From Spartobacteria bacterium (GTDB lineage Bacteria > Verrucomicrobiota > Verrucomicrobiia > Chthoniobacterales > UBA10450), in NCBI GenBank assembly GCA_003134765.1, contig PLCM01000031.1:129540-193539 (forward strand): 64,000 nucleotides of DNA, given 5' to 3'. Within the stretch, counting starts at the first letter, position 1, and every line of letters starts with the position of its first letter. The notes beneath the pieces were generated by a model, which saw only the letters and a list, made by a program, of their open reading frames with translations, was not told the DNA's origin and did not search any database. Positions 3,986 to 54,678 of this stretch are shown here, piece after piece. A program made the position numbers and the translations under genes.

Positions 3986-3986
3986 A

Positions 3987-5180: not shown

Positions 5181-5249
5181 CTGGTGTTCCTCTTTTTTAA
5201 AACTAACTGCGTCTTTTTGGGTTTCCTGGCCGGCCGCGAGCCCCACTGC

Positions 5250-7454: not shown

Positions 7455-7546
7455 GTGTGTCTCACCTATTAGAGGGAGACGCAAAACGATTGCAAGCCGG
7501 CGCTACTCTGTTTCGAATGGGTCCCCTTGGCCGAAAGGGGCCGCAA

Positions 7547-8488: not shown

Positions 8489-8506
8489 CTTTCCGTCGAT
8501 GCCGTT

Positions 8507-14789: not shown

Positions 14790-14867
14790 AAGTGGGGAGA
14801 GTGGGTGTGATCATGAGCGAAGCGTGGCGTATTTGGCTTGACGCTAGATTTCGATCAAGAGTTTTTG

Positions 14868-17129: not shown

Positions 17130-17677
17130 TCGTAGGCCTGGTAAGCATCCGCGTCCGGACGATAGGGATTTCTCGTTAGGCCGGCGAGCCAATGCAGGAT
17201 CAAGAAGGCGAGAGGTGCCATGATCATCGCGATCACGCCGGGACCCGCGATTTGCCACCATGCTTCCCGGGTGAAGAAAAGCGAGCCGCGCCGAAACGAG
17301 ATCATGAGGTATTGGGAAAGCAGGATCGCGGAGGTGCAAACACCGCTCATTATGCAATGCACTTCCCAGCGTCCCCGGATAAACAAAGGCCTCAGCCCAT
17401 GCATAATCGCCGCCAGCACGGCGTAGAGGAGTATTGACCATCCGACTGAAATTTCAACCCGGCCCCCGAGAACCTGGGCGGTGACCGCATCGAGCATGAA
17501 CCCCGCGAAAAACGCGAGGGCCATGACCGCCGGAAACGGCAGCGCCATCGCGCCGTAAAAAACAATGATCGGCACGATGTAAATGCGCGCGTTGTACATC
17601 CAATCGAGCGGCGGAATAAAAAATTCCACGATCTGCGCGAGGAAGGTCAGGACAAGCAGGATGGCAAAGAAGATCAT
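17126..17677 (-). CDS. mreD: Rod shape-determining protein MreD
   Basis: 183 aa and polytopic. It lies between mreC and mrdA. Confidence 0.8.
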   Translation of the reverse strand: MIFFAILLVLTFLAQIVEFFIPPLDWMYNARIYIVPIIVFYGAMALPFPAVMALAFFAGFMLDAVTAQVLGGRVEISVGWSILLYAVLAAIMHGLRPLFIRGRWEVHCIMSGVCTSAILLSQYLMISFRRGSLFFTREAWWQIAGPGVIAMIMAPLAFLILHWLAGLTRNPYRPDADAYQAYE

Positions 17678-17687
17678 TGGCGCGGCC

Positions 17688-17822
17688 GAAATGACGAAGG
17701 TCGAATGTCGAATGTCGAAACAAGCCCCAATGACGAATGACCAAAGGCCAATCGATACGGTTTCATTCGAATTTCGAGCTTTGTCATTCTTGCGACATTC
17801 GTCATTCGGATTTCGTCATTTT
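17688..17822. repeat. Low-complexity palindromic spacer element (aatgacgaa / ttcgtcatt arms)
   Basis: gaaatgacgaa (17688-17698) and ttcgtcatttc (17811-17821) are reverse complements. There are internal cgaatgtcgaatgtcg repeats. It fills the mreC-mreD spacer. Confidence 0.55.
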
Positions 17823-18619
17823 CTTCCCGTCACCACGAACACGTCCTCGAGATGCGACAAGTCGACGGCCGGCGTCACCCGCGCCTGGCCATCCAGCTCC
17901 CGCACGCGGAAACTCTGGATCGTGCCGACGAGCAATCCGGAGGGAAAAACTCCGCCCACTCCTGAGGTATAAACCTTCGCGCCCGGATTCAGGTTCGCCT
18001 GTTTCGAGAGAAAATTCAGGTCGAGCATCGGCGTAACGGAGCCGGTCACGCGCTCGCCCGAAACGATCCCCTGCTCCCGCGTTCCTTCCACGGAGCACGC
18101 GACCTTGCAGTTCTCGTCCGAAATCAAAAGGACCACGGTGATGTTATCGCCCACGGTGGCGGTCTTGCCCACGAGGCCTTCGTCGGTCACCACCGGCTGG
18201 TCGGGTTCGATGTGATCGTTTTTCCCGCGATTGATTGTGATCGTGCGCCACCAGGTCGAGGAATCGCGCGCGAGAATTTCCGCCGGCACCAGCCGGAAGA
18301 GCGCCCGCTCCCGGTAGGCCAGCGCCTGCCGCAGCCGATTGACTTCATGCTCGACATCGCGCAACGCCTGGTTCGTCGCCTTGAGCGAGCGGTTCTCGAC
18401 TTTCAACGAGGCATTGTCCCGCTCCAGTTCCTCCAGGGTTTGCAACCCGCTGCTGACCGACGTGAACTGCTTTTTCAACCCGGACCCGCTCGAAAGAAAG
18501 GGGGAAATCACCTTGTAAAAGCCAGCCTGGAGCGTGCGCGTCCCCTCCGCGCCGAGAGTCAGAAAATAGGCCAGGACCGCACCGAGAACCGCGAGCGCAA
18601 TGATACTCGAACGGTTCAT
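17816..18619 (-). CDS. mreC: Rod shape-determining protein MreC
   Basis: TM helix, then a coiled coil (LEELERDNASLKVENRSLKATNQALRD), then beta-barrel domains. The ATG at 18617-18619 was verified. Confidence 0.88.
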   Translation of the reverse strand: MNRSSIIALAVLGAVLAYFLTLGAEGTRTLQAGFYKVISPFLSSGSGLKKQFTSVSSGLQTLEELERDNASLKVENRSLKATNQALRDVEHEVNRLRQALAYRERALFRLVPAEILARDSSTWWRTITINRGKNDHIEPDQPVVTDEGLVGKTATVGDNITVVLLISDENCKVACSVEGTREQGIVSGERVTGSVTPMLDLNFLSKQANLNPGAKVYTSGVGGVFPSGLLVGTIQSFRVRELDGQARVTPAVDLSHLEDVFVVTGRK

Positions 18620-18627
18620 GACGACTG

Positions 18628-18709
18628 CGAAATGGGGAATGGGGAATGCGGAATGGAAAGAAAAGCTGCGCGATCGGAATGCATTCCGCATTCCGCATTC
18701 CCGATTTCG
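18628..18709. repeat. Low-complexity palindromic spacer element (ggaatgcggaatg / cattccgcattcc)
   Basis: The inverted repeats fill the mreB-mreC spacer. Confidence 0.55.
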
Positions 18710-18718
18710 AATTTGTTC

Positions 18719-19756
18719 CTACCGCCAGTTTCGATCGCTCGAGGCCACCTGACGCAAAAATTTAAGTTCATTGAGGCATTTGCCGGTTCCTTCCGCGACG
18801 GCGCTCAGTGGATCTTCGGCAACATGGACAGGCAAACCGGTTTCTTCGCTCAAAAGTTTGTCGAAGCCGCGGAGAAGGGCGCCGCCACCGGCCAGAACGA
18901 GCCCGCGGTCGACCAGGTCGGCAGACAACTCGGGCGGACAGCGTTCGAGTGTAATCCGAACCGAATCGACGATCGTTGAGATCGGTTCGAGCAATGCCTC
19001 CCGCACTTCCTGCGACGTGATCATTAACGTCTTCGGCAACCCGGCCACGAGATCGCGACCCTTCACTTCCACGCTCGTTTCCTTTTCGCTCGGATAAGCG
19101 GAACCGATTTTGATTTTGATTTCTTCCGCGGTGCGCTCGCCGATCATCAGGTTGTAGGCCCGCTTCATGTATTGCACGATCGCTTCGTCGAGCTCGTCGC
19201 CCGCGACCCGGACGCTGCGGCTGAAGACGATCCCGGAAAGCGAAATCAATGCGACTTCGGTCGTGCCGCCGCCGATATCGATGATCATGTTGCCCGCCGG
19301 ATCCTGGACCGGCAGACCCACTCCGATCGCGGCCGCCATCGGTTCTTCGATCAAATAAACTTCTCGCGCCCCGGCGTGGGTGGCGGATTCGCGGACGGCG
19401 CGCTTCTCGACTTCCGTGATGCCGGATGGGACCGCGATCACTACCCGGGGTTTGGCGCGGACGCGGCGTCCATGCACTTTCGTGATGAAATGCCGGAGCA
19501 TCGCTTCCGTTACTTCGAAGTCTGCGATGACGCCGTCTTTCAACGGGCGGACCGCGACAATATTCGACGGGGTGCGGCCGAGCATGCGCTTCGCCTCATC
19601 GCCCACCGCGAGCACCTTGTTCGTGCCGGCCTGGACCGCGACCACCGATGGTTCACGCAGGACGATGCCCTGGTCTTTTACATAGACGAGCGTGTTGGCC
19701 GTCCCGAGATCGATGCCGATGTCGCTGGATAACCAGCCGAAGAGTCCATTAAACAT
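18719..19756 (-). CDS. mreB: Rod shape-determining actin homologue MreB
   Basis: [15 protein letters not shown]...[11 protein letters not shown]... are canonical MreB motifs. Confidence 0.97.
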
Positions 19757-29968: not shown

Positions 29969-30095
29969 AAATTCGAAATCCGAAGCGCGAAACTCGAAAC
30001 AAATCCGAATTACGAATGGGGGAAAACGCAGTGTCTGCATTTCGGAATTTTTCCTCGGTCATTGTTTCGAGTCTCGTGCTTCGGATTTCGAAATT
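29969..30095. repeat. Long imperfect hairpin element (cgaaatccgaag arms) between the LanB-like gene and parA
   Basis: aaattcgaaatccgaagcgcgaaactcgaaaca (29969-30001) pairs with tgtttcgagtctcgtgcttcggatttcgaaatt (30063-30095). Confidence 0.7.
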
Positions 30096-32586
30096 ATCCA
30101 GGAACAATCTGGGTGCGAAGTTCGAAAGTCCTGCGCCCGTCCGCCTCCTGCCAAAGCAAATGATCCGGATTCGGAAGCATCTCGGTGACCTCGAGCTCAC
30201 CGGCTTTCGTCAGCCAGCCATGAAAGACTTCGAGGAACAAATAACTCTCGAGGTCGATGAAGACCGGTTTGGTATCCTTGTCGCGGCCTTCGGCGCCGCT
30301 GCGGCGAAGCGCCTGTTCACTGGGCCGAATGTAGACGTGGCGCGGCCAGCCCTTTGCCGCGCGCAGGCGTTCGATCGCCGCGACGAGGTTCCGGGCAACG
30401 CCGGTGTAATTTCCCGCCGGCAATTCCTCCAGTGTCACGGTCCACGAACGGCGTTGCACAATCACTTTGCCGCAACGTAACCGCGGCATGTGCGGCGTCC
30501 GCCCAAATAGAAACGGATGGAACCCAAGCGGAATCACCCAGGCGCGGGCGAAGGAGCCAAGGTATTCGTGCGACTCGCGCGTGCGCAAGCCGACGTCGCC
30601 GCTGGCCTCATCCGCAAACACCTCGATCTCGGCCGGCGGGATGAGCCGCCAGCGCGGATCGCCCCGTTGCGGCGCGACGAAACTCGTCAGGCCGGGCATG
30701 GCATCGAGCACTCTCACGGCCGTCGTCGCGGTGAAATCGATCGCGAAAAAGCCGAAGTGAAAAGTCGGCCGGCCTTTTGTCGTGCTCGCGAGCGCCCGGC
30801 CCAGTCCCTCCTTGTCGGGACACGCCCAGTAAAAGCCGTGATGCAACAACGCGACCGGCGGATGGAGTTCGGCCAGGACCCAGTCGTACTCACCCCGGCC
30901 GACGGCGTCCACGGACTTCGCAGAAATCTGCATGTCGGCCGAGGGATAAGTGTATTCGTCGAACTTCGGATACTGGAGATTTTTGCGAACGAAGTGGCAA
31001 TCATCGGCGGTGAGCTGCCATTCGTCGGCATCCGGCCGATGCGCGACCTGTTGGCGAAAGGCGGCTTTTACCTCCTGGAAGGCCATGTGCGCCAGCCCGA
31101 CCATTGCCGGTCCCGTAAGCGGCATTCGCAATTGCTCACAAACGTGCAGAAATGCGGGAAGGGGCAGAGCGCCATTTCGGGTCGGCGCCTTTTCGAGAAG
31201 TCCGCGCAAACCGGCGGAGACGCGGCTCGCCACGAAGGCGTAGCAATCGCGCCACAGATCGATCCACGGGGCGGCATCGCGCACGACTTCTCCGACGAGA
31301 TCTTCACCGATGGTGAAACCGCATTCGCGGAAACATTCTTCACCGATCGGATTGGCGGCGGAATACAAAAAACGTGTCCCGGTTTTCGGCAACGCGCCGA
31401 GCCGTTGCAAACGGTCGTCCGCCTCATCGATGATCCGGGTCCGCGCCGCCGTTTCGTCAGTCTCGGCAAACTTTCGCGGTAATTGCGCGAGGGGCTGAAG
31501 CCGCTCGAGCCACCGTGCGCGGACCGCGTTATCGCGCCACGCCGCGACATCGGCGACCAGGACATCGAAGGCGTGGGGCTCGAGCGCGGGAACCTCGACT
31601 TCCCAGCGGATGATCTTTTGCCGGGCCAGTTGCTCGAGAGGAGTCATTTCGACGCCTAACGAGTATGCGGGTGTTTTCGAATCAATCTGGCGAAGAAGGT
31701 CCCGGGTCGCGTCGTCAAGCGCGACCGTTTCACCAGTGTCGGCAAAGACGAAACGGTTTCCTTCGATCCGGCCATTTGGATTCAAGCGCGGCGCCAGTTC
31801 CGCGCGAACCTCCGGATCGCCATTCAACGCGGCGGCCAGGCCGTGCGCGGTCCAACGCTCGAGAAAAGTTTCGCGGGCCGCGATGCCGGGCCGCGGCGAG
31901 AGCGTCAAACTTGCCGGCGCTCCTCCAATTGTCCCCCACCCTTCCGGGCCAAACGCGCTCAGCGAATCGTTCTTCGCCGCGATGCGTTGCAAATAAAGAA
32001 GCAGATGCCGCTCATGAGCGCGCGACGATTTGTTGCGCGGCGGCAGGGCACCGGTGGCCGCGGATTGTTTCGCGAGGCGTTCGCGCAATCCTTCGGACGT
32101 GAAGACCAGATAGGGCGGCAAAACTGTCCGCGCCGCTTCGAGCAGATTGCTCCGCGCGGCCGCCAGTTCGCGCTGCAACGATTCCTCCAAGCGCGTTTCA
32201 GCCGCGGCCAGCTGCGACGCGCATTCCCAGCAATGGGCGAAAGCGCGCGAAGGAGCGTCGCCTGCCGGCGGCACCGCCCCGGAGCGAATCGCCTTCCGCC
32301 AGGCGCGAAATAAATCCTCGGAGAGCCCGTGGCCGCGGTGACGAAGAAGTTCTTCCACTTCCACCCTGGCTTGCGCGAACTCATCCTGCCTGACCACCAA
32401 TTCGCGGGCCAGTGCCGCCGTTTCGATCGTGACAAGTTTTTCGACGGCATCGAAGGGCACGCCGGCCATTCGGAGCAAAAATATGGGGGCAACGCGGTAC
32501 GACGAGTCAGACACTTGTCCAACAGAACGGAAGCCGTAGGCAGTGACAAGTGAAAGTCTACGCTCCGAAGGGACGTGCTTCCGCAC
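30094..32586 (-). CDS. Lantibiotic-dehydratase N-terminal (glutamylation) domain family protein; stand-alone LanB / PEARL-like
   Basis: 830-aa ORF with VAPIFLLRMAGVPFD, HLLLYLQRIAAKNDSLSAFGPEGWGTIG and the C-terminal KPVFIDLESYLFLEVF...ELEVTEMLP...GRRTFELR. The ORF-track start is a GTG inside a hairpin arm, so the true start may be the GTG at 32512-32514. The family call is from memory of motifs and no HMM was run. Confidence 0.6.
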   Translation of the reverse strand: MRKHVPSERRLSLVTAYGFRSVGQVSDSSYRVAPIFLLRMAGVPFDAVEKLVTIETAALARELVVRQDEFAQARVEVEELLRHRGHGLSEDLFRAWRKAIRSGAVPPAGDAPSRAFAHCWECASQLAAAETRLEESLQRELAAARSNLLEAARTVLPPYLVFTSEGLRERLAKQSAATGALPPRNKSSRAHERHLLLYLQRIAAKNDSLSAFGPEGWGTIGGAPASLTLSPRPGIAARETFLERWTAHGLAAALNGDPEVRAELAPRLNPNGRIEGNRFVFADTGETVALDDATRDLLRQIDSKTPAYSLGVEMTPLEQLARQKIIRWEVEVPALEPHAFDVLVADVAAWRDNAVRARWLERLQPLAQLPRKFAETDETAARTRIIDEADDRLQRLGALPKTGTRFLYSAANPIGEECFRECGFTIGEDLVGEVVRDAAPWIDLWRDCYAFVASRVSAGLRGLLEKAPTRNGALPLPAFLHVCEQLRMPLTGPAMVGLAHMAFQEVKAAFRQQVAHRPDADEWQLTADDCHFVRKNLQYPKFDEYTYPSADMQISAKSVDAVGRGEYDWVLAELHPPVALLHHGFYWACPDKEGLGRALASTTKGRPTFHFGFFAIDFTATTAVRVLDAMPGLTSFVAPQRGDPRWRLIPPAEIEVFADEASGDVGLRTRESHEYLGSFARAWVIPLGFHPFLFGRTPHMPRLRCGKVIVQRRSWTVTLEELPAGNYTGVARNLVAAIERLRAAKGWPRHVYIRPSEQALRRSGAEGRDKDTKPVFIDLESYLFLEVFHGWLTKAGELEVTEMLPNPDHLLWQEADGRRTFELRTQIVPG

Positions 32587-32648
32587 GTGCCGTTATTCGC
32601 GGCGCTTGAGGAGAGCCAAAAAAATCGGACGTGCGGAAGCACGTCCCT
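32569..32648. repeat. 19-bp perfect-stem hairpin with 42-nt loop in the kinase to LanB-like spacer
   Basis: agggacgtgcttccgcacg (32569-32587) is the reverse complement of cgtgcggaagcacgtccct (32630-32648). Confidence 0.8.
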
Positions 32649-32666
32649 CCGAAGGAAAAACGCCGC

Positions 32667-33815
32667 CTAGTTGTTGAGCAGCGGCAGGCGGATCGTGAAG
32701 GTAGTCCCGACCTGGGGAGTGCTGTCGACCTTGATCGAGCCGTTGTGGTCTTCCACCACCTTTTTGGTGATGTAGAGACCGAGACCGGTGCCGCTTTTGC
32801 CTTGCTTCGTCGTGAAATAGGGATCGAAAATTTTCGCCATCTGCGCGGGCGCAATCCCGTATCCGGTATCTTCGACGCGCACGTCGACGTAGAAATCCTT
32901 GCGCACGCAGCTCACTGTCACCGTCCCCTTTTTTTCGCTGACCGCCTGGACCGCGTTGATGATTACGTTCTGGATGGCACGCGTCATCTGCGTGGAATCG
33001 CCGAGAAGAGTGCAGGCGTCATCGCATAGATTGGATTTCAGCTCGACGCCATTTTGGGCGGCCATCGCGGTCACGCCTTTCACAACCTCGCGGACGAGGG
33101 CGGAAACGGAGATCGGCTTGTGCGGCGTGGCTTCGACGCTGCCATAGCTCTGCCACATTGTCAGGAGCTCGCGACAGAGCCGGACATTCTGCTCGATGAT
33201 CTGGAGTTCCTTTGCGTTCTGGCTCTTCGCTCCATTATCTTTTTCCGACTCCTCGAGCTTCTTGGCAAGGAGTTGAACGTACCCCCAAACAATCGTGAGG
33301 GGATTGCCGAGGTCGTGCACAAACTCCGCCGAGGCCTGGCCTAACGAGGCCAGCCGCTCCTTTTGCGCCAGCTCTTTCAGGAGCCGATTGTTGAGTTCCT
33401 TGATTTCCTCCGCCGCATTCACGCCGGTGCGGTGAAGACGGGTCCGTTCCACATTGCGGCCGATCACCTCCCGCATTTCTCGCGCGTCAAAAGGCTTGTT
33501 GATGTAATCGTTGGCGCCGAGCCGGAGCGCTTCCTGCGCAGTCTCGAGCGCGCCGAACCCGGTCAGCATGATGACCGCCACGTGCGGATCGATTTCCCGG
33601 ATGCGCCGCAAACCATCGATGCCGCTGGCGCCGGGCATGCGAATGTCGGTAATCACGGCGTCGGGATGTTTTTCCTTCAAGAGCTTGATCCCGGCCTCGA
33701 CGCAATCGGCCGTGTAGACCTGATAATTCGGCTTCAACAGCATGCGCAAACTTTCGCGAGGCCCCATCTCGTCATCGATCACGAGGACTTGGGGAAGGTC
33801 GGAGGCAGCTGTCAT
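32667..33815 (-). CDS. Hybrid response-regulator receiver / histidine kinase (REC-HisKA-HATPase)
   Basis: REC: VLVIDDEMGPRESL...DAVITDIRMPGASG...NKPF. H-box: SAEFVHDLGNPL. G-boxes are in the C-terminus (GTGLGLYI). The ATG at 33813-33815 was verified. Confidence 0.88.
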   Translation of the reverse strand: MTAASDLPQVLVIDDEMGPRESLRMLLKPNYQVYTADCVEAGIKLLKEKHPDAVITDIRMPGASGIDGLRRIREIDPHVAVIMLTGFGALETAQEALRLGANDYINKPFDAREMREVIGRNVERTRLHRTGVNAAEEIKELNNRLLKELAQKERLASLGQASAEFVHDLGNPLTIVWGYVQLLAKKLEESEKDNGAKSQNAKELQIIEQNVRLCRELLTMWQSYGSVEATPHKPISVSALVREVVKGVTAMAAQNGVELKSNLCDDACTLLGDSTQMTRAIQNVIINAVQAVSEKKGTVTVSCVRKDFYVDVRVEDTGYGIAPAQMAKIFDPYFTTKQGKSGTGLGLYITKKVVEDHNGSIKVDSTPQVGTTFTIRLPLLNN

Positions 33816-33934
33816 GGCGCGTAAGAGAAAGCTAAGGCTGTACCGCGTAACGAACGTATAGTGAGCTGCCCCTCGCCTCAAATGGCGTGTCTGTGAAGTG
33901 TGAAACTTTTTTTTGATGGCACAAGAAGCAACTT

Positions 33935-33963
33935 GTGAATAAGTCGGAAATTTGGTGAATAAG
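33935..33963. promoter_or_regulatory. Direct repeat GTGAATAAG-N11-GTGAATAAG in AT-rich divergent control region
   Basis: The exact 9-mer occurs at 33935-33943 and 33955-33963 (20-nt period). It lies between divergent genes starting at 33815 and 34059. A role as a regulator binding site is inference. Confidence 0.3.
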
Positions 33964-34058
33964 GTGGAGACAGAGAGCCACAAAAACATAATGACTGGAT
34001 TTAGCGTAATCACTAGAATGTCCGCCTCTTCCTCCAAATCCGAATCACAAATGGAGCC

Positions 34059-35297
34059 ATGTTAAAGCGGAATCGCGTCGTTGTTACCGGCATGGGCGTC
34101 ATCGCGCCGAATGGAATCGGACTAGAAGCCTTTTGGGATTCGATCGTGTCCGGACGGAGCGGCGTGGGTCCGATTACCCACTTCGACGCGAGCGCCTTCA
34201 AAAGCCGGATCGCCGGTGAAGTGAACGGATTTGAACCACTGGATTACATCGATCCAAAGTTCAAGCCGAAACGGATGGCGCGACACACGCAGTTCGCTTT
34301 CGCGGCCATGAAAATGGCGCTGGCGGATGCGGATTTCGACCCGTCCAAACATTCGGTCGATCATCCAATTCCTGTCATGCTGGGCGTGAGCACCACCGCG
34401 ATGGAAATTCTTGAAAGCGGCTGGGAGGATCTTTCGCGGCGCGGCCCCCGCGGCGTGAGTGCTGGAGTCGTCGATTGTCAGCCGCAGGCGGCCACGCAGG
34501 TGTTAACGATGGCGTTGGGAATCTCGGCCCGGGCCACCACAATTTCTTCAGCCTGTCCATCGGGTCTGGATGCGATCGCGGCGGCGGCCACCATGATCCG
34601 CCATGGAGAAGCGGATATCGCGGTGGCGGGCGGGACGGACGCGACGATCACGCCTTTGTCGATGGCGAGCTTCGCCACGGCGGGATTGAGTTCGACGCGG
34701 AATTCAGACCCGGAAAGGGCGAGCCGGCCATTCGACCTCCAGCGGGATTCCGGCGTCATTTCGGAGGGCGCGGGCATCGTAATCCTGGAGAATTATGAGA
34801 GCGCTATCGCCCGGGGCGTTTCGCCTTACCTCGAAATCACGGGCTACGGCACGCAGGGGGATGATTACGCCAGCGGTGAGCTGTTCGGATTGGGGCAAAC
34901 CATGCGGGCAGCGTTGAACAGCGCGGGCAAATCGCCCGAGGATGTCGATTACATTTGCGCCTACGGCCCGGGCCATCCCGCGCTCGACATTGTCGAGACG
35001 GATATGGTGAAGCGCGTTTTTGGGCGGCGCGCCTACAGCATTCCGATGAGCTCAATCAAGGGCGTGACCGGCAACGCCCTCTCCGCGGCGGGTCCGCACC
35101 AGGTGATCACGTGCGGTTTATGCTTTAAGCATGGGATCATCCCGCCTACCGCCAACTACGAAGTGCCCGATCCGCGTTGCGACCTCGACTACGTACCAGG
35201 CCGTTTTCGGAATCGACGGATCAACACCGCGCTGATCAATGTGCGCGGCCTGGGCGGAGGCAACAGCAGCCTGGTGGTGGAACGCGTTCGCGAATGA
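34059..35297 (+). CDS. FabF-like beta-ketoacyl synthase with non-canonical active site
   Basis: MLKRNRVVVTGMGVIAPNG, ISSACPSGLDAI (active-site Cys), DPERASRPFD, and C-terminal GLGGGNSSLVVE. The His positions are substituted (see findings). Confidence 0.88.
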   Translation: MLKRNRVVVTGMGVIAPNGIGLEAFWDSIVSGRSGVGPITHFDASAFKSRIAGEVNGFEPLDYIDPKFKPKRMARHTQFAFAAMKMALADADFDPSKHSVDHPIPVMLGVSTTAMEILESGWEDLSRRGPRGVSAGVVDCQPQAATQVLTMALGISARATTISSACPSGLDAIAAAATMIRHGEADIAVAGGTDATITPLSMASFATAGLSSTRNSDPERASRPFDLQRDSGVISEGAGIVILENYESAIARGVSPYLEITGYGTQGDDYASGELFGLGQTMRAALNSAGKSPEDVDYICAYGPGHPALDIVETDMVKRVFGRRAYSIPMSSIKGVTGNALSAAGPHQVITCGLCFKHGIIPPTANYEVPDPRCDLDYVPGRFRNRRINTALINVRGLGGGNSSLVVERVRE

Positions 35298-37807
35298 ACG
35301 CCGCCAATATTTCCCTCTGGCTGGCCCTGCTCATTCAGTTTGGGCTTGGACTGGCCGTCTACCGCGCCAATTCGCGCAACCACGCAAATCAAAGTTTTCT
35401 CATTGTCTCTTTTTTTATCTCGGCATGGCTCCTCTTCCTGCAATTCGCATTCGACGCCACGGATCCCGTAAAGGCCGCGCTCTGGATTCGCAGTGCTTGG
35501 GCCAGCGGGGTCCTGATGGTGAATGGATTCAACCTGCTCCGGCTCGGCATTCTCTGCCGGGACGGCGGGTGGAAGGAAATCGGGCGCAGGTGCGCCGGCC
35601 TCGCGATTCCGAGCCTGGTCGCCATCGCGGGCTGCTACACGCCTTTCTTCCTGCGATCGGCCGAGATCCGCCGGGCGAGCGGTCATGAACTAATTCCGCT
35701 GCCGGTTTACGGTCCACTCTTTCCCGTTTTCGGGGCCCTGCTCGCGAGTTCGGTCGTCATCCTGATCATCTTCTATGTGCGGGACCTCCGGCGCACCGCC
35801 GGAGTGCAGAAGGTCGAACTCCAGTTCATCGTCGCGGGCGGAGTCGCACTCGCCATTCTGGTCGCGCCCACCCAATTTGTGGATCGCGCGATCGCGATGC
35901 AGTTCGCGCCGTTCCGGATCGTTGTCTTCAGCCTGATCATTGCCTACGGCATCTCAACCCGGAAGATCATGGATGTCGGATTTTTCTTCCGGCGCATCAC
36001 ATCCTACGCCGTCCTCGCGGCCTACTTGCTGGTGCTTTACGCTCTGGTTTGGTGGCTGGTTTCGACGGCGTCCAGACCGCTTTTTGCAACCGAAAGCCGC
36101 ACTTTCGGGCACGTGGCGGCGGCCCTCGTCGTCGCCTTCGCGATGGCGCCGGCCCGTGGAATTTCTCAGCGCTTCGCCAACCGCCTTTTCATCGGCTCGC
36201 GCGGGATTGATTTCCAATCGACGATGAACCAGGCGGCCAGCATCCTGAAATCGGTCGCCACCCTGCAGGACTTGCTCGATCGCTTCGCGAAAACGATCGG
36301 GGAAGCAGTCGGGACGGATCGCGTTTTCATCCTGCTGCCCGAGAAGGACGCCTACGTGCAGCATTACCCCGCGGTCCATCCGGATTCCGACACGCCTGCC
36401 CTGCGGTTGAACCGGAGCGATCCCACAATTTCCTACCTCCAGACCCATCAGGAAGTGCTCGTCCTGGATGAGCTCCATCGTATTCGCAAAACGCCGGAGA
36501 TGGAGCGGGCCGCGAAAGAGATGGAGCGTCTGAAAACTGCCGTCGCTCTCGGCTTTTTCTCGCGGCAACATCTGGCGGGCGTCATGTTCCTGGGCCCGCG
36601 GCTCTCGGGCCGCATCTATGGCGCGGTCGAACAGAACGCCCTCCAGGTCCTCTGCGGCCAGTTGGCGGTGGCGATCGACAACGCCCAACTCTTCACCGAG
36701 GTCGAGAACGCGAGAATCTACAACGAAACCCTGCTGGAAAATCTGACGACCGGCGTGATCGCAGCCGGGGCCGACGAGCGGGTCACGGTATTTAATAGTG
36801 AGGCCGGGCAAATTACGGGGCTCAATCCGCGTGAAATCATCGAGCATTCGCTGGATCGCCTGCCCGCCGGGCTGCGCGCAATCCTGTGCGAGACGCTGCG
36901 CACCGGCAGCCGGCAGGAAAACAGCGAATTGGTTCTATCGCTCGGCGATCATAACGCGGTCGTTCGCGCCAGCAGCTCGATCTTTCACGGCCAACAAGGC
37001 GAGATGCTCGGCGCGCTCGTCGTGCTGACTGACATCACCGCGCTCAAACGCCTCGAATTACAGATCCGCCGGAGCGACCGGCTCGCCAGCCTCGGCACAC
37101 TCTCCGCCGGCATGGCGCACGAGATTAAAAATCCGCTGGTCTCGATCAAGACTTTTGCGCAGCTGTTGCCCGAGCGTTATCAGGACTCCGATTTCCGCGA
37201 AACCTTTTCGAACCTGATCGGGCACGAGATCGATCGGATCGATTCGCTGGTGAACCAGCTCCTCCGTTTTGCGCGGCCGGCCAAGCCAGTTCTGAGGCCA
37301 ATGCACGTGCACGAAGTCCTGGAAAAATCGCTCCAGCTCGTGGGCCACCGCCTCTACCAGAAGGAAATCAAATTAGCTCGTTCCTGGCAGGCCGATGTGG
37401 ATACTATCCGCGCCGATGCCGACCAGCTCGAACAGGTTTTCCTCAACTTCTTCCTCAACGCCATGGACGCCATGAAGCACGGCGGAGAACTGAGCGTGGC
37501 GACGGAGATCCACGCGGGAACGGAATGGGTGGCGGCCATCTCTGGGACCAATGGCGATTCTCACGAAGTCCTGCGGGTGACGATTCGCGACGACGGCGAA
37601 GGCATTCGCAAGGAAGATATCCCCCACGTCTTCGATCCGTTCTTTACCACGAAAGACTACGGCACGGGACTCGGGCTTTCGGTTGTGCACGGCATCATCC
37701 AGGAACATGGCGGACAGATCGAAGTGGAAAGCGAGATCAGGAAAGGAACATCATTTCACATTCTTCTGCCGCTGGTTCGTTTCGCGGAGGGGGTTGTCGC
37801 GGCATGA
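35294..37807 (+). CDS. Sensor histidine kinase, multi-TM N-terminal domain + GAF + PAS + HisKA + HATPase
   Basis: About 8-9 TM helices at the N-terminus. The H-box is SAGMAHEIKNPL and the ATP-lid is DDGEGI...GTGLGLSVV. ATG 35294 overlaps the KS stop (ATGA). Confidence 0.88.
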   Translation: MNAANISLWLALLIQFGLGLAVYRANSRNHANQSFLIVSFFISAWLLFLQFAFDATDPVKAALWIRSAWASGVLMVNGFNLLRLGILCRDGGWKEIGRRCAGLAIPSLVAIAGCYTPFFLRSAEIRRASGHELIPLPVYGPLFPVFGALLASSVVILIIFYVRDLRRTAGVQKVELQFIVAGGVALAILVAPTQFVDRAIAMQFAPFRIVVFSLIIAYGISTRKIMDVGFFFRRITSYAVLAAYLLVLYALVWWLVSTASRPLFATESRTFGHVAAALVVAFAMAPARGISQRFANRLFIGSRGIDFQSTMNQAASILKSVATLQDLLDRFAKTIGEAVGTDRVFILLPEKDAYVQHYPAVHPDSDTPALRLNRSDPTISYLQTHQEVLVLDELHRIRKTPEMERAAKEMERLKTAVALGFFSRQHLAGVMFLGPRLSGRIYGAVEQNALQVLCGQLAVAIDNAQLFTEVENARIYNETLLENLTTGVIAAGADERVTVFNSEAGQITGLNPREIIEHSLDRLPAGLRAILCETLRTGSRQENSELVLSLGDHNAVVRASSSIFHGQQGEMLGALVVLTDITALKRLELQIRRSDRLASLGTLSAGMAHEIKNPLVSIKTFAQLLPERYQDSDFRETFSNLIGHEIDRIDSLVNQLLRFARPAKPVLRPMHVHEVLEKSLQLVGHRLYQKEIKLARSWQADVDTIRADADQLEQVFLNFFLNAMDAMKHGGELSVATEIHAGTEWVAAISGTNGDSHEVLRVTIRDDGEGIRKEDIPHVFDPFFTTKDYGTGLGLSVVHGIIQEHGGQIEVESEIRKGTSFHILLPLVRFAEGVVAA

Positions 37808-39804
37808 TTCCATCGCCCCCCATTTGCATCCTCTACTCGCAGGATGCCGATCTCGTCCGCCGCGTGAAGGCATTCCTGAGCGCGCTCGCGCAAGTGCGCC
37901 ATGTCAGCTCGCCGGACCGTCTCGACGCCGTGCTGCAACAGAATAGTCCCGCCATTCTCGTCCTGGATTTACGGGCCAAGGAAGCACGCGATCTTCTCGA
38001 ACAAATCCAGACCGCGCTGCCTGAGATCCTCGTCATTGCGCTGGGGACGTTGCGCTCGGAGCCGTTGCGCGAAGTCGAGCATTCTGGCATTTACGCTGCG
38101 GAAGATTTGCAGATCGATCGACGTCGTTTGCAGGGGCTGGTCTCGCGCGGGTTCGATCATTTGCGCGTCCTGCAGGAAAATCGCGATTTACGCGATCATG
38201 CGTTGGTGCCGTTCGCCGCTGAGCCGCTGCGGCGCGTCGAGGCGCCGCCCGAACGACGCGAGGCGTCGATGCCGCTTCTGCGTTTCCCACGCGTGTTCCG
38301 TCGGTTCGATAACGTCGAGGCACTCCTCGCCAGCGTCGTGGAAAATGTAGCTGACGCGACCGGTGTGGGCCGGGTGGGAATCTTTTCCAAAATCAGGCAG
38401 AGCGATCGCTACCGTTTGCGCGCCGGCCTGCGTTGTCTGCCCGAGACCTATGACATTGAATATGGCGAGCGCGATGCCCTCGTGCGCTGGTTTGAGCTGC
38501 ATGCGCACCTGATTTGCCGGGCAAATCTTCCGCAGGTCGATCCGGCACAGCGCGCGATCATGCGGCGCGCGCTCGATACCTTTGCGGCTGAAGTAATCGT
38601 CCCCCTCCACGCCGCCGGCCGAATTATCGGATGGGTCTTTTTTGGCCATCGAGTGACCGGTCAACGCTTCGAGTCGTCCGATCTCGAAGCGCTGATGGTT
38701 CTCGCGGAACACGTTTCAACGGTCCTGGAGAATGCGTTGCTCAATGAAGAAGTGAGAGTGCAAAAAACACTCGCGGAGACGTTGCTCAAATCTATTCCGC
38801 CGGGGATCGTCGCGACCGACCAAGAGGCGAACATCCGCTGGTTCAATCCGACGGCCGAACAAATTCTCGGCGTTGACGCCCAGGATGCCCTCAATCACCC
38901 CATCGAGGCGGTCGGCGGCCGGCTCGCGGCTTTTTTGCGCGAAACCCTGGATGCGCACGAAAATCTGCCGGCCCGCCAATGGATCGATCCCAACACCCGG
39001 CGATCGCTTTCGGTGGAAACGCGGCGTTTGGTCGACGAGAAAACTCCGCTCGGGGCCGTGGCCGTCGTCCACGATCTGACGACGGAGGACAACCTCCGGC
39101 AGAAGCAGGACCTGGTGGATCGTGCTGCCTTCTGGACGGATCTCGCCGCCAGCATGTCACACGAAATCCGCAACCCACTCGTGGCGATCAAAACATTCGC
39201 CCAGCTTCTCCCGGAGCGATTCGAAGACCCGGATTTTCGCAAGGATTTCAACGAGATCGTCGTCCAGGAAATCGACCGACTCGACAAGATCATCACTCAA
39301 ATCAACAACTTCGCGCATCCCTCCGAGCTGGTGATGAAGCCGGTCGACCTTCGAGGCCCCCTCAAGAAAGCGATCGAGTTGGCCAAAGGACGCGTGACAA
39401 AGAACGGCGTCGCCATCGACACGACTTTGCCCAACGACCTGCCGCGCGTCCTCGGCGACGAAGATGCCCTCACCGAAGCGTTCGCCCATATTGTGGCCAA
39501 TGCTGCCGAAGCGACCTCGGGCCAATCCAAACCGCGCATCACCCTGGCTGCCAAATCAATCCACGAAGGGGGCCGAACCAGCGGAGTGGTGATCACCGTT
39601 CAGGACAACGGCCGCGGGATTTCCGCGGACCTCCGCGAGAAAATCTTCTCGCCGTTTTGCACCACGAAAGCGCGCGGAATGGGCCTCGGGTTGCCAATCG
39701 TGAAACGCACCGTGTTCGACCATAACGGGCGCGTCGACATCGACTCGAATCCCCACGGGACCTCTGTGAGCATTATGCTCCCGGCGACCACGATCGCGAA
39801 ATAG
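37804..39804 (+). CDS. Cytoplasmic histidine kinase, receiver-like N-terminus + GAF + PAS + HisKA + HATPase
   Basis: The N-terminal ICILYSQDADL...AILVLDLRAKEARDLL looks receiver-like. The H-box is ASMSHEIRNPL, followed by DNGRGI...GMGLGLPIV. ATG 37804 overlaps the previous stop (ATGA). Confidence 0.85.
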   Translation: MIPSPPICILYSQDADLVRRVKAFLSALAQVRHVSSPDRLDAVLQQNSPAILVLDLRAKEARDLLEQIQTALPEILVIALGTLRSEPLREVEHSGIYAAEDLQIDRRRLQGLVSRGFDHLRVLQENRDLRDHALVPFAAEPLRRVEAPPERREASMPLLRFPRVFRRFDNVEALLASVVENVADATGVGRVGIFSKIRQSDRYRLRAGLRCLPETYDIEYGERDALVRWFELHAHLICRANLPQVDPAQRAIMRRALDTFAAEVIVPLHAAGRIIGWVFFGHRVTGQRFESSDLEALMVLAEHVSTVLENALLNEEVRVQKTLAETLLKSIPPGIVATDQEANIRWFNPTAEQILGVDAQDALNHPIEAVGGRLAAFLRETLDAHENLPARQWIDPNTRRSLSVETRRLVDEKTPLGAVAVVHDLTTEDNLRQKQDLVDRAAFWTDLAASMSHEIRNPLVAIKTFAQLLPERFEDPDFRKDFNEIVVQEIDRLDKIITQINNFAHPSELVMKPVDLRGPLKKAIELAKGRVTKNGVAIDTTLPNDLPRVLGDEDALTEAFAHIVANAAEATSGQSKPRITLAAKSIHEGGRTSGVVITVQDNGRGISADLREKIFSPFCTTKARGMGLGLPIVKRTVFDHNGRVDIDSNPHGTSVSIMLPATTIAK

Positions 39805-39882
39805 GCATTTTCGATTTCCGATTTTGGATTTATGGTTGCGTCCCCCGTCGGGCGCAATTCAACCATCAATCTCCAAAATCGA

Positions 39883-40836
39883 ATGATCGTCACCACTGCT
39901 CAACTTTATAAACACGCCTACGGCAAATACGCCGTCGGGGCCTACAACATTAATAACATGGAGCAGCTCCTCGGGCTCTTCAGCGGCAACGTCCGGAGCA
40001 AAGCGCCGTTCATTATCCAGCTTTCCAAGGGCGCCCGGAAATATGCCGACAAGCGGATGCTCGAAGCCATGATCCGTACCGCCGAAGAGATGTTTCCCGA
40101 GGCCGTATTCGCGGTCCACCTCGACCATGGCGACGAGGAGACCTGCTATGATTGCATTGCCTCGGGGTTCTACAGCTCGGTGATGATCGATGCGAGCCAC
40201 GAGGCGTTCGACGAGAACGTTGCCATCACGAAGCGCGTGGTGGAAAAGGCGCATCCCAAAGGCATCAGCGTCGAAGCGGAGCTGGGTCAACTGGGAGGCG
40301 TGGAGGAGGACATCAAGGTCGATGAAGGACATGCTTCGCTCACGAATCCGCTCGAGGCCGTGGAATTCGTGAAGCAGACCGGGTGCGATTCACTGGCGGC
40401 CGCGATCGGCACCAGCCATGGCGCCTACAAGTTCAAGGGCCAGCAAAGCCTTCATTTCGACGTGATCGAGGACATCCAGAAATTGATCCCCGGCATGCCG
40501 ATCGTGATGCACGGCAGCTCGAGCGTCCCGATCGAAGAAGTGCAGCGGATCAATGCGGCCGGCGGAAAGCTCGATCCTTCAGCGCGGGGCGTGAACGAAG
40601 AAGAATATTTGCCTGCGGCCAAACTGGGCGTCACCAAGGTAAACATCGATACTGATGGGCGCCTGGTCTGGACGAGGGTCCATCGCGAATACTTCCGGGA
40701 CCACCCCGCCGAATTCGATTTCCGCCCGCCGGGAAAAATCTTCGTCGAGGAATACGCCAAATTTATCGCCCACAAGAATGGCAAGCTTGGCTCGGCTGGC
40801 CAGCTCGACGGCGTTCGGGAGAGTCTGAAGGGATAG
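39883..40836 (+). CDS. fba: Class II fructose-bisphosphate aldolase
   Basis: YAVGAYNINNMEQ...HLDHG...AIGTSHGAYKF...MHGSSSVP. Confidence 0.93.
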   Translation: MIVTTAQLYKHAYGKYAVGAYNINNMEQLLGLFSGNVRSKAPFIIQLSKGARKYADKRMLEAMIRTAEEMFPEAVFAVHLDHGDEETCYDCIASGFYSSVMIDASHEAFDENVAITKRVVEKAHPKGISVEAELGQLGGVEEDIKVDEGHASLTNPLEAVEFVKQTGCDSLAAAIGTSHGAYKFKGQQSLHFDVIEDIQKLIPGMPIVMHGSSSVPIEEVQRINAAGGKLDPSARGVNEEEYLPAAKLGVTKVNIDTDGRLVWTRVHREYFRDHPAEFDFRPPGKIFVEEYAKFIAHKNGKLGSAGQLDGVRESLKG

Positions 40837-40865
40837 CGAGCTTTCAGCTTATCTTGGACTCCGAC

Positions 40866-40975
40866 CTGTAGCCGCTTCGCTGTGCGAAGTGCCGGATCCG
40901 CCCAGATTGCTCACCGATGCGCCGCCTGCTCCCTTCGCGAAGCTTCGGCGCGGGAGGCTGGGCGACTGCTACAGA
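40866..40975. repeat. Palindromic element CTGTAGCC...GCTACAG (copy C3)
   Basis: ctgtagccgcttcgctgtgcgaagtg ... ggctgggcgactgctacag. Confidence 0.7.
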
Positions 40976-41096
40976 AGAGACGCGGCAATCACCCCAGGTG
41001 CCCTGATCGGGTCACGGCGGGCGGAGAATTTCAGCCCCATTTCGGCGTTGGCAAGCTTAGTGCTTATAGTTATTATAGTAATTATAACAGAGCACT

Positions 41097-41543
41097 ATGA
41101 AAATCCTTGCCCGCGATACCGTCGAGTTCCTCCTTATCGATGACGACCCAGCCATTACCAAATTCCTCGTCACCTACCTCAAACAAAAAGGGCACACCTG
41201 CGAATACCTCACCGAGGGTTTCAAGACCGCGGCCTGGCTCGAGTATCACCGCTGCGACGTGGCGGTGGTCGATCTCAACATGCCCAAAGTAGATGGCATT
41301 TCCCTTATTTCGTTCATCCGCGAGATGAGCCAGACCCTCCCGATTATCGTCTTCACCGGCGTCGGTTACGACGAAGACCGAATGCACGCCGCCCTCCGCG
41401 CCGGAGCCAACGGTTACGTCAGCAAAAATCTTCCGATCGAACAGCTTTACTGCGTCCTGTCACGCGTCCTGGCGACTTGCCAGCAGCGGGCCAGGCGCGA
41501 GTCTCTGGCCCGCCCCCAACAGGTGTTGGCCGGCGCCGCCTAA
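41097..41543 (+). CDS. Single-domain CheY-like response regulator
   Basis: FLLIDDDPAI...CDVAVVDLNMPKVDG...IIVFTGVG...GANGYVSKN. There is no output domain. Confidence 0.88.
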   Translation: MKILARDTVEFLLIDDDPAITKFLVTYLKQKGHTCEYLTEGFKTAAWLEYHRCDVAVVDLNMPKVDGISLISFIREMSQTLPIIVFTGVGYDEDRMHAALRAGANGYVSKNLPIEQLYCVLSRVLATCQQRARRESLARPQQVLAGAA

Positions 41544-47134: not shown

Positions 47135-47299
47135 ACGCCTGACATCCTATTCGGGCCTTGCTTTCATTGCACGGCCGTCGTTCGGCCGGTTGCGCTTCCC
47201 GGAATCAGCCCGATCGAGCAAGTTTCCGTTCCAATATCGCGACGTTCTTTGACAAGCGGGCGGTTGGTCTGCAAAGCTCGCTCTCCCGAACTTGTCGAC

Positions 47300-47986
47300 A
47301 TGTCGAGCCCGCGAATTCTAATCATCGAGGACGAACAGGACGTGATCGATCTGCTTACGCTTCATCTGCGCAAAGCCGGCTTCGCCTTGAGCACCGCGAC
47401 GGATGGAGCCGTGGGACTCCGCAAGGCGAGGGAAGAATCGCCGGCGTTGATCATTCTCGATCTGCTCCTGCCGAAAATGCCCGGGCTAGAGATCTGCAAG
47501 GTGCTCAAGACCGACATCGCCACCCGGCAGATTCCCATTCTCATGTTGACCGCGAAGGCGGAGGAAATCGACCGCATTATCGGGTTGGAATTCGGCGCCG
47601 ACGATTACGTCACGAAGCCATTCAGCCCTCGCGAACTGGTTCTCCGCGTGAACGCCATTCTCCGGCGGGGAAAAGGCGAAGCGGGCGATGAGAAAAAATT
47701 GTCAATTGGACAGATCACCCTCGATCCCTCCCGCCATCATGTGACCGTGGGGGACAAATCGGTGCGATTGACCAGCGTAGAATTCAAATTGCTCAGCATG
47801 CTCATGCGGCGCCAGGGACGGGTGCAGGAGCGCGACCGTTTGCTGAACGAAGTCTGGGGATACGAAAGCGTCATCGACACGCGCACCGTCGATACTCACA
47901 TCCGACGGCTCCGCAAGAAATTGGGCAAGGCATCCTCCGCCATCGAAACAGTCCGCGGCTTCGGGTACCGCATTCGGGAAAGCTAA
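47300..47986 (+). CDS. phoB: OmpR/PhoB-family response regulator
   Basis: RILIIEDEQDV...LIILDLLLPKMPG...KPF and a winged-helix C-terminus ...VRGFGYRI. It is adjacent to phoR and pst. Confidence 0.9.
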   Translation: MSSPRILIIEDEQDVIDLLTLHLRKAGFALSTATDGAVGLRKAREESPALIILDLLLPKMPGLEICKVLKTDIATRQIPILMLTAKAEEIDRIIGLEFGADDYVTKPFSPRELVLRVNAILRRGKGEAGDEKKLSIGQITLDPSRHHVTVGDKSVRLTSVEFKLLSMLMRRQGRVQERDRLLNEVWGYESVIDTRTVDTHIRRLRKKLGKASSAIETVRGFGYRIRES

Positions 47987-47991
47987 GCCGG

Positions 47992-49266
47992 ATGGGTTGG
48001 CTCGCCTTTTCCCTGTTGCTGGGGCTCCTGCTCGCGATCGGTTTCGCGGTGTGGCACAAATGGATCGCGCCGTGGAAAGATGTGGAGCAATTGGCTGACG
48101 ACATCGTAGGAAGTCGTCCTCCGCGGAAATTTCTCATCAGCGGCAACCTGCATGCGCGCCGGATCGGACTGGCGCTCGAAAGCCTGACCGATCGCCGGCG
48201 CGAGCTCGAGCAACGGGTGCGCGAGGGGGAGCTCAGCGTCCAGGCTGTCTTCGGCGCGATGCTCGATGGACTGGTGGTGGTGGACGATCTCCGCCGCGTC
48301 CGTCTCATGAATCGCGAATTCCGGACCGTTTTCGGTATCGAACAAAGTATCTCCGGCGGAACCCTCCTGGAGCTGATTCGGCACGCTTCGGTCGATCGCC
48401 TGGTCATGGAAGCGATCCGCAGCAGGCAACCAAAGCGGGAATCGATTCAACTTTCCCGCGGCACCAGCGACGGCCGGGAAATGGAAGTAAGCGCCGTCCC
48501 TTTGGGAGAGAATTCCGCCCAAATGGAAGGCGCCGTCGTGTTGTTTCGCGACGTTACGCAACTGCGGCAGGTGGAGGAAATGCGCCGGGAATTTGTCGCC
48601 AACGTTTCGCATGAGCTGCGAACGCCGCTCTCGATCTTCCGCGGATATCTCGAGACGTTGCTCGACGACCCACACCAGCCGCCGGGCGAACTGCTGCGCA
48701 TCCTTGAAATTATGGAGCGCCATTCCGATCGGTTGAATGCGCTGGTCGAAGATGTGCTCAGCCTGGCCCGGCTCGAGTCGCCGGGGATGGAACTTAATCT
48801 GGCGGAGGTCGATCTTCCCGAGCTGCTCCACTCGATCATGCGAGATTGGGAGAAACGCTTTGCCACCAAGCAGCTCAAATCGCATCTCAATTTCCCGGGA
48901 AATCTTCCGCTCCTCGAGGCGGACGAGAGCCGTCTTCAAGAAGTCATTTACAACCTTCTCGATAATGCCGTGAAATATTCCAAACCCGGCGGGACCGTCT
49001 CTCTTCGTGCTGAAATCGAGGGCGAGCGCGTTCGTATTAGCGTGACCGATCAGGGCGTCGGGATTCCCGAGTCCGATCTGCCCCGTATCTTCGAGCGCTT
49101 CTATCGCGCCGATAAGGCGCGCAGTCGCGAACTCGGCGGGACGGGCCTGGGCCTGTCGATCGTCAAGCACATCATCCAACTCCATGGCGGCGCCGTGGAG
49201 GCGAGGAGCGAACTCGATAAGGGAACGACGATCAGCGTGCTGGTGCCAATCACGCGCAGAGCGTGA
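47992..49266 (+). CDS. phoR: Phosphate-regulon sensor histidine kinase
   Basis: TM helix, PAS domain, H-box FVANVSHELRTPL, then DQGVGI...GTGLGLSIVKHI. Confidence 0.88.
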   Translation: MGWLAFSLLLGLLLAIGFAVWHKWIAPWKDVEQLADDIVGSRPPRKFLISGNLHARRIGLALESLTDRRRELEQRVREGELSVQAVFGAMLDGLVVVDDLRRVRLMNREFRTVFGIEQSISGGTLLELIRHASVDRLVMEAIRSRQPKRESIQLSRGTSDGREMEVSAVPLGENSAQMEGAVVLFRDVTQLRQVEEMRREFVANVSHELRTPLSIFRGYLETLLDDPHQPPGELLRILEIMERHSDRLNALVEDVLSLARLESPGMELNLAEVDLPELLHSIMRDWEKRFATKQLKSHLNFPGNLPLLEADESRLQEVIYNLLDNAVKYSKPGGTVSLRAEIEGERVRISVTDQGVGIPESDLPRIFERFYRADKARSRELGGTGLGLSIVKHIIQLHGGAVEARSELDKGTTISVLVPITRRA

Positions 49267-54667: not shown

Positions 54668-54678
54668 GAGTTCTCCGG

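Follow-up and report, generated by a model that had tools for sequence, protein, structure and literature searches.

In the current analysis we have identified a block of signalling and enzyme genes that is a real, order-specific core-genome neighbourhood of the Chthoniobacterales. It was studied in a stretch of 64,000 nucleotides from a Spartobacteria bacterium (assembly GCA_003134765.1, contig PLCM01000031.1, positions 129,540 to 193,539 of the forward strand), referred to here as the window. The block encodes three histidine kinases (HK1, HK2 and REC-HK, the last a hybrid with a receiver), a FabF-derived ketosynthase-like protein (KS), a class II fructose-bisphosphate aldolase (fba), a LanB-like protein resembling the peptide aminoacyl-tRNA ligases (PEARLs) and an ATPase of the ParA family. 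The order and orientation fba<-HK2<-HK1<-KS || REC-HK->LanB-like->ParA is retained in every sufficiently long locus among about 150 genome and metagenome loci. We favour, with moderate confidence, an organisation in which two coupled modules lie side by side, a three-kinase module with a KS-like accessory and an operon of the PEARL-like gene and parA.

Conservation of the block across the Chthoniobacterales

A scan of a genome collection, seeded with the alignment of the LanB-like family, gave 302 relatives, and the best 80 of the 302 were analysed as loci. This genome set represents 80 species-level Chthoniobacterales genomes, and a metagenome scan added about 75 loci on contigs. Gene order was scored by tblastn of the window proteins, a gene being counted only where the contig was long enough. 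The best 80 loci all belong to Chthoniobacterales or 'Spartobacteria' metagenome-assembled genomes (MAGs), with LanB-like identities of 55-86%. Close relatives of the LanB-like protein number in the hundreds, and those with a named source are all labelled Chthoniobacterales or Verrucomicrobiota.

REC-HK is present in 69/69 loci of the genome set, KS in 63/63, HK1 in 60/60, HK2 in 55/58 and fba in 51/57, and ParA follows the LanB-like gene in 70/72, usually with overlapping start and stop codons. The metagenome loci match this order, and the synteny persists down to 53-55% LanB-like identity. The flanks are less conserved. De novo clustering of open reading frames (ORFs) places a marker downstream of ParA in 39/62 loci (63%), whereas the core genes are 95-100% present in order, and several alternative neighbours occur on the side beyond fba while the block stays intact. 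The initial annotation of this DNA had named lack of synteny in any related genome as the sign of a chance juxtaposition; the order conserved in all long-enough Chthoniobacterales loci argues that the block is not one. A literature search for the block in Chthoniobacter or Udaeobacter found nothing relevant.

The junctions are conserved as well. The two ATGA overlaps described initially are real (35294-35297 for KS/HK1 and 37804-37807 for HK1/HK2). Both measure about 4 nt across genomes, with KS/HK1 ranging from -4 to +2 nt. The median gap at the LanB-like/ParA junction is -1 nt, most relatives having overlapping start and stop codons there, and such overlaps are thus conserved at three junctions of the block. 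The divergent pair of KS and REC-HK stays together in all 63 genome-set loci, with a spacer of about 240 nt.

The ketosynthase-like protein

KS is closest among PDB entries to the Bacillus subtilis FabF (4ls5, about 40% identity), and its score against the fabF model TIGR03150 is 366.5 bits, below the cutoff of 493.75. At the positions of C164, H304, K336, H341 and F399 of FabF the window protein and 64/64 orthologues read C, Y, K, N and R. In the numbering of Escherichia coli FabF, His304 is replaced by Tyr, His341 by Asn and the gatekeeper Phe by Arg. The Cys-His-His triad of FabF is thus Cys-Tyr-Asn in all of them, which bears out the earlier description of KS as a ketosynthase without its catalytic histidines. 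The substitutions are independently visible in the alignment with 4ls5.

The two histidines of FabF are required for the decarboxylation of malonyl-acyl carrier protein (ACP) and for the condensation. With both lost and the Cys kept, KS can probably be acylated and probably cannot elongate chains, as judged from its residues. As it invariably opens a kinase operon, it may serve as an accessory or co-sensor. The KS orthologue of L001, a MAG chromosome of 3.98 Mb, is called as two ORFs of 89 and 340 aa (7267-8506), probably a frameshift in a long-read assembly and not a real pseudogene.

The LanB-like protein

The LanB-like protein, encoded in the ORF at 30094-32586 (-), matches Lant_dehydr_N of Pfam with E = 3.5e-17. 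A search of the PDB with the single sequence gave no match and a profile was required; the family profile matches TbtB (6ec7, E = 2e-23) and also GodF. The AlphaFold2 model (pLDDT 87.7, pTM 0.86) aligns in Foldseek over its full length with TbtB (TM 0.68), GodF, MibB, NisB and MadB. No Lant_dehydr_C or other elimination domain was found by Pfam in the protein or its neighbouring genes in the window locus and in L001, in agreement with the earlier view of a stand-alone LanB- or PEARL-like enzyme. A precursor or cyclase, as expected beside class I lanthipeptide or thiopeptide dehydratases, was likewise not found at these two loci.

Ten residues (Y159, Q161, R162, D512, E534, H536, R663, R673, E783 and R785) do not vary among 153 distinct orthologues, E783 and R785 being the same in 151/151 ungapped sequences of the 153. 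The PEARLs are reported to retain an ATP-grasp-like site, which in TglB comprises D542, E801 and R803 (PMC11117183, PMC11962472). The split LanBs are reported to have Leu in place of the Arg of the Glu-x-Arg motif (E851-x-L) and Tyr in place of the Asp (PMC11117183). The CCA end of the tRNA is reported to be bound by a Tyr-x-x-Arg helix, and an N-terminal Arg to be close to the carboxylate of the substrate (PMC11962472). The Asp and the Glu-x-Arg diagnostic of PEARLs would correspond to D512 and E783-x-R785 of the LanB-like protein. D512 and E534 are 22 residues apart, as are D542 and E564 of TglB, with H536 as the candidate for the conserved His of the ATP site, and this assignment is by spacing only. 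E783 is placed at E851 of TbtB through the offset of the TbtB alignment, and R785 therefore sits where TbtB reportedly has Leu.

On these motifs the protein would more likely be an active PEARL-type ligase than a dehydratase. As the residues that distinguish PEARLs are, by these assignments, all kept and the elimination domain is missing, the protein is probably an active carboxylate-aminoacyl-tRNA ligase. Public gene calls start it at ATG 32469 (791 aa), downstream of a conserved N-terminal segment, YRVAPIFLxR. The part so cut off includes an Arg matching a residue reported to be functionally important in PEARLs, and translation probably begins at the GTG at 32514.

The block yielded no gene for a precursor peptide, an ACP, a transporter or a tailoring enzyme, small ORFs not having been searched systematically. 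The spacers on the two sides of the LanB-like gene are short, one of 132 nt occupied by an inverted repeat and one of about 150 nt with hairpins. The C-terminus of ParA was considered as a substrate of the enzyme and is unlikely to be one, the tails after EF[LI]xRH being variable across 115 distinct sequences.

The histidine kinases and receivers

All three kinases have HisKA and HATPase_c domains in which the sequences show intact H, N and G boxes, and REC-HK carries a Response_reg domain, so that the three kinases and the one receiver fusion noted initially are confirmed. A further Response_reg domain is found in a CheY-like protein. Among the NCBIfam models the kinases come closest to AtoS and ZraS, with every score below the cutoff. 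REC-HK is 68-96% identical across loci and is, with ParA and fba, among the best-conserved proteins of the block. Its receiver we take to be of the NtrC type.

HK1 and HK2 are tandem paralogues that share 31% identity overall. The first helices of their dimerisation and histidine phosphotransfer (DHp) domains are nearly identical (HEIxNPLVxIKTFAQLLPER), and the DHp of REC-HK differs. This paralogy and the near identity of the helices make it probable that HK1 and HK2 target the same receiver. Pfam gave no significant matches to the N-termini of HK1 and HK2; for HK1, a relative carries a precomputed HisKA_7TM annotation.

The N-terminal 120 residues of HK2 are receiver-like, as the initial annotation had proposed. 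They align with a CheY profile in hhalign with a probability of 79%, and a low-confidence single-sequence AlphaFold2 model (pLDDT 62.7) has the (beta-alpha)5 topology, with the receivers of NtrC1, HupR and NtrX as the top Foldseek matches (TM 0.73-0.79). The acidic pair and the conserved Lys of receivers are missing, and the domain is therefore probably a pseudo-receiver. The orphan CheY-like regulator of the same annotation is indeed present beyond fba, and only a subset of the loci carries one.

ParA and its junction with the LanB-like gene

ParA scores 250 bits to PDB 8ray and 232 bits to Soj of Thermus, and has the deviant Walker A motif KGGVGKT. The initial annotation had set the block at 30094-41543 with an orphan ParA in it; the gene is present without a recognisable parB, but it lies outside that start. 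It is a canonical Soj-type chromosomal partition ATPase, so that the block has a housekeeping-type gene besides fba, which had been taken for the only one. A tblastn search with a Spo0J query gave no match to parB in the window, nor within 10 kb of the ParA gene in any of about 165 related loci.

The LanB-like/ParA gap of the window measures 132 nt and is filled by an inverted repeat of 34-nt arms, 59 nt apart, that overlaps the LanB-like stop codon. Among the loci compared, the repeat is present only in L002, L003 and L008, and is probably a recent small hairpin or an insertion resembling a miniature inverted-repeat transposable element (MITE) in the operon junction. The motif GGATTTCGAA was considered as a recurring element and rejected, as it is not enriched across the window and both its perfect copies belong to one local inverted repeat.

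Radical-SAM and DUF4130-UDG genes (UDG, uracil-DNA glycosylase) lie directly downstream of parA in many relatives (L001, 13483-16167; L168, 13738-16424). In the lineage of the window a stand-alone family-4-like UDG takes their place.

Candidate regulatory DNA

The divergent spacer between KS and REC-HK has a GC content of 0.457 against 0.593 for the window, in keeping with the AT-rich divergent promoter region proposed initially. The spacer contains promoter-like hexamers. Conserved blocks are seen in 105 distinct orthologous spacers. The perfect palindrome CACAAG-N6-CTTGTG is conserved across about 100 of the orthologous spacers and is, from its sequence, a candidate regulator binding site.

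A conserved terminator at the REC-HK/LanB-like junction was also considered. The window has a strong hairpin and its relatives give no consistent signal, the scan of relatives being confounded by T-rich codons of the conserved LanB N-terminus (PIFLIR). In the same junction (32570-32646, minus strand) a palindrome, GGACGTGC-TTCC-GCACGTCC, is followed by a T-run. A second palindrome, GCACGTGC-GGAA-GCACGTCC, lies about 40 nt downstream of the first, at the GTG of the long LanB-like ORF. The two palindromes are approximate reverse complements of one another and could form alternative structures, a possible attenuator. L117 has a similar hairpin.

Breakpoints and LanB-like loci outside the order

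Within the order, L019 and L107 have an insertion of 4.5 kb that separates REC-HK from the LanB-like gene. L168 keeps the LanB-like gene and ParA without the signalling genes. Its downstream side has the radical-SAM and DUF4130-UDG genes as in L001, and on its upstream side genes for PilT-like, AcrB, HlyD, PMT and NusA (unrelated to NusG) proteins replace the signalling genes.

The outgroup comprises the LanB-like genes of L084-L088, L115, L152, L169 and L170 and a tandem paralogue in L152, at 37-47% identity. None of these ten loci, nine of them independent, has a kinase, ParA or FabF-like gene, L088 offering only two flanking genes. The context searches outside the order were all anchored on the LanB-like gene. 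The same order of genes runs throughout the sampled Chthoniobacterales, and its extension to other phyla, for which the initial annotation had proposed a check, was not seen at the ten outgroup loci.

These loci look like biosynthetic clusters or have uncharacterised neighbours. Genes for a PALP protein, an M28 peptidase, ACP_syn_III (similar to β-ketoacyl-ACP synthase (KAS) III), phosphoenolpyruvate mutase and an AMP-ligase are found in L085 (1256-12262). L086, of the Kofleriaceae (1-7265), has an AMP-ligase, the KAS III-like ACP_syn_III, RidA, a methyltransferase and MatE. L170 (382-6910) has a methyltransferase and LeuCD-like and HMGL-like proteins. The neighbours are an M20 peptidase, a pyruvyl transferase and a GNAT protein in L084, an amidase in L087 and an AMP-ligase in L115, and the two flanking genes on the short contig of L088 are uncharacterised. 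Two LanB-like paralogues stand in tandem in L152 (650-5565) and three LanB-like genes in L169 (2329-9469).

A metagenome scan seeded by the outgroup sequences gave mostly Chthoniobacterales matches again, and the P0123 clade has two members only. No relative from outside the Chthoniobacterales that shares the context of the block was found in the genome scan (best 80 of 302) or in this outgroup-seeded scan.

A proposed pair of coupled modules and the alternatives

From the gene content, folds, conserved residues and synteny described above we infer the following functional organisation, together with any cross-talk between its two parts. The first module would consist of the operon KS-HK1-HK2, possibly extended by fba, and the divergent REC-HK, under one shared and conserved AT-rich control region. 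KS may act as an accessory that binds or transfers acyl thioesters and may inform the membrane kinase HK1 of the state of lipids or acyl-ACP. The signals of HK1 and HK2 would converge on one receiver, for which that of REC-HK, of NtrC type, is the most plausible candidate, in a kinase-on-kinase network. The second module would be the operon of the PEARL-like gene and parA, its enzyme probably an active carboxylate-aminoacyl-tRNA ligase moved from biosynthetic clusters into the core genome. The separability of the two is indicated by L168, by the insertion in L019 and L107 and by the terminator-like hairpin of the window at the REC-HK/LanB-like junction.

Several points weigh against this organisation. 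The evidence is entirely comparative. The PEARL residues were assigned by motif, spacing and an alignment to TbtB in place of TglB or BhaB. The block has no DNA-binding output response regulator, its only single-domain regulator being the variably conserved CheY-like protein, and neither an ACP nor a candidate PEARL substrate was found in it (again with no systematic small-ORF search). Most genomes have a short spacer of about 95 nt between REC-HK and the LanB-like gene, and the terminator shows no consistent conservation, so that REC-HK, the LanB-like gene and ParA could be one operon and the two modules less separate than proposed. The synteny was sampled in a single order in which the flanks are also partly conserved (63%), and phylogenetic inertia therefore contributes.

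It is unlikely, in our estimate, that the whole block is a single integrated system in which the phosphorelay controls, or senses the product of, a joint chemistry of KS and the PEARL-like enzyme, for example a signal resembling an N-acyl amino acid or lipopeptide detected by HK1. Nearly every genome has all the parts adjacent, and REC-HK, the LanB-like gene and ParA run in one direction with little space between them. The LanB-like gene has relatives in other phyla that stand beside ACP_syn_III of the thiolase superfamily (L085 and L086) and beside AMP-ligase genes (L085, L086 and L115), so that acyl chemistry beside a PEARL recurs. However, these outgroup partners are of the FabH type and not the FabF-derived protein with Cys-Tyr-Asn, and the composition of the block as such is absent from the ten outgroup loci. 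KS is coupled translationally to HK1 and the PEARL-like gene to parA, which speaks against the pair of modifying enzymes under phosphorelay control that the initial annotation had proposed. The insertions of L019 and L107 and the rearrangement of L168 fall between the signalling genes and the LanB-like-ParA pair, L168 retaining the latter without KS or kinases. The block also offers no ACP, precursor, transporter or tailoring gene for a joint chemistry, as far as its annotation without a systematic small-ORF search extends.

We give a similarly low likelihood to inertia as the whole explanation, by which units with nothing in common (fba, parA, a cluster of two-component genes and a stray PEARL-like gene) would be adjacent merely through slow rearrangement in one order. 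The housekeeping character of the region (EF-Tu, NusG, RNase G, PBP2, MreBC, glgC and glmS), the flank marker kept in 39 of the 62 loci, the association not being seen at the ten outgroup LanB-like loci, and the breakpoints between REC-HK and the LanB-like gene are in its favour. It accounts poorly for a core adjacency of 100% against 63% in the flank, for the start/stop overlaps conserved at three junctions, for a divergent pair that is unseparated in the 63 genome-set loci with conserved spacer motifs, and for a left flank with several different neighbours beside an intact block.

To our knowledge, PEARLs and LanB-like enzymes have been described only from natural-product gene clusters. Here a PEARL-like enzyme with intact catalytic residues, its gene overlapping parA, has become a constant part of the core genome in a soil order that is abundant and for the most part uncultured, which points to a physiological, non-antibiotic role of aminoacyl-tRNA-dependent ligation. 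KS, with its Cys kept, both His lost and a kinase coupled to it, is a candidate co-sensor of lipid status, of a new type that derives from an enzyme. A very speculative reading is that a PEARL-type ligase has been domesticated as a housekeeping enzyme of the Chthoniobacterales. It might aminoacylate the C-terminus of a protein or peptide of ParA segregation, or might make with KS an N-acyl amino acid signal sensed by HK1, and in either case the three-kinase module would tie its activity to the lipid or metabolic state. The former, if true, would parallel the tyrosination of tubulin in a bacterium and might make up for the lack of an adjacent ParB.

Features of the block and its surroundings

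Table 1. Features of the block, in window coordinates.
Feature	Coordinates	Strand	Evidence or detail
ParA, Soj-type ATPase, 255 aa	29194..29961	-	Pfam AAA_31 and CbiA
Inverted repeat pair, 34-nt arms, in LanB-like/ParA spacer	29969..30095	.	Arms 29969-30002 and 30062-30095, 91% complementary
LanB-like, stand-alone glutamylation-domain protein, PEARL-like, ~806 aa	30094..32514	-	Pfam Lant_dehydr_N
Terminator-like hairpin and T-run, REC-HK stop/LanB-like start junction	32627..32646	-	8-bp stem, 6 GC pairs, then GATTTTTTTG
REC-HK, hybrid kinase: presumed NtrC-type receiver (N-terminal), HisKA, HATPase; 382 aa	32667..33815	-	Pfam Response_reg 1e-28, HATPase_c 2e-27
AT-rich divergent control region with palindrome CACAAG-N6-CTTGTG (33920-33937)	33816..34058	.	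GC 0.457
KS, FabF-derived ketosynthase-like protein	34059..35297	+	Pfam ketoacyl-synt N and C domains
HK1, multi-pass membrane GAF, PAS, HisKA, HATPase kinase	35294..37807	+	Pfam
HK2, cytoplasmic kinase: probable pseudo-receiver, GAF, PAS, HisKA, HATPase	37804..39804	+	Pfam; receiver fold by profile and structure comparison
fba, class II fructose-bisphosphate aldolase, 27 nt past HK2	39832..40836	+	Pfam F_bP_aldolase 1e-79
CheY-like single-domain receiver, peripheral, variably present	41097..41543	+	Pfam Response_reg 2e-23

The locus is embedded in the core chromosome. The window encodes EF-Tu, NusG, tRNA-Trp and tRNA-Thr at 2915-5325 and a cell-shape cluster of RNase G, PBP2, MreC and MreB at 13215-19756, about 10 kb from parA. 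Rpe, glgC and glmS are further core genes. The OmpR-type response regulator and PAS kinase pair nearest to the block (47249-49266) is followed by two ABC-transporter permease genes (BPD_transp_1) up to 52110. This unit resembles phoB/phoR with pst genes, and is separate from and unrelated to the block studied here. A CHAD-domain protein is encoded at 53735-54682.

Comparison with known systems

KS shares with FabF, the KAS II enzyme, and with the non-elongating ketosynthase (KS0) domains a full-length FabF fold and the active-site Cys and Lys. Unlike FabF it lacks both catalytic His, has Arg for the gatekeeper Phe in 64/64 orthologues and scores below the fabF model cutoff, and unlike both it heads a kinase operon and not a fab or polyketide synthase cluster.

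The LanB-like protein is similar to the PEARLs (LanBC proteins TglB, BhaB and AmmB) in its length of about 800 aa, its glutamylation-domain fold and the missing elimination domain. Its invariant Tyr-x-x-Arg helix, Asp, Glu-x-His and C-terminal Glu-x-Arg would, as assigned by motif and spacing, match those of the reported tRNA-CCA and ATP sites (PMC11962472, PMC11117183). It differs in that its gene belongs to the core genome of a whole order, is coupled to parA and stands beside kinases, with no scaffold peptide, tailoring enzyme or transporter found near it in annotation that included no systematic small-ORF search. The split LanBs, TbtB of thiomuracin and GodF of goadsporin, are its best profile and structure matches (6ec7, E = 2e-23, TM 0.68; 9jhq). 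Against these it has no elimination partner, cyclase or precursor, and it has E-x-R for their reported E851-x-L and an invariant Asp for their reported Tyr.

The kinases recall the multikinase networks with REC-HK hybrids and NtrB/AtoS-type kinases, in combining multiple kinases that have PAS and GAF sensors with a kinase whose N-terminal part is a receiver and with a stand-alone CheY-like receiver. They differ from them in that the locus encodes no output regulator, sigma-54 activators included, in the translational coupling of a KS-like gene to the lead kinase and in the probable pseudo-receiver of HK2.

ParA, finally, is a close homologue of Soj of the chromosomal ParABS (Soj/Spo0J) systems. 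Unlike in these, no parB was found downstream or within 10 kb of the parA of the block, and its upstream operon partner is a PEARL-like enzyme.

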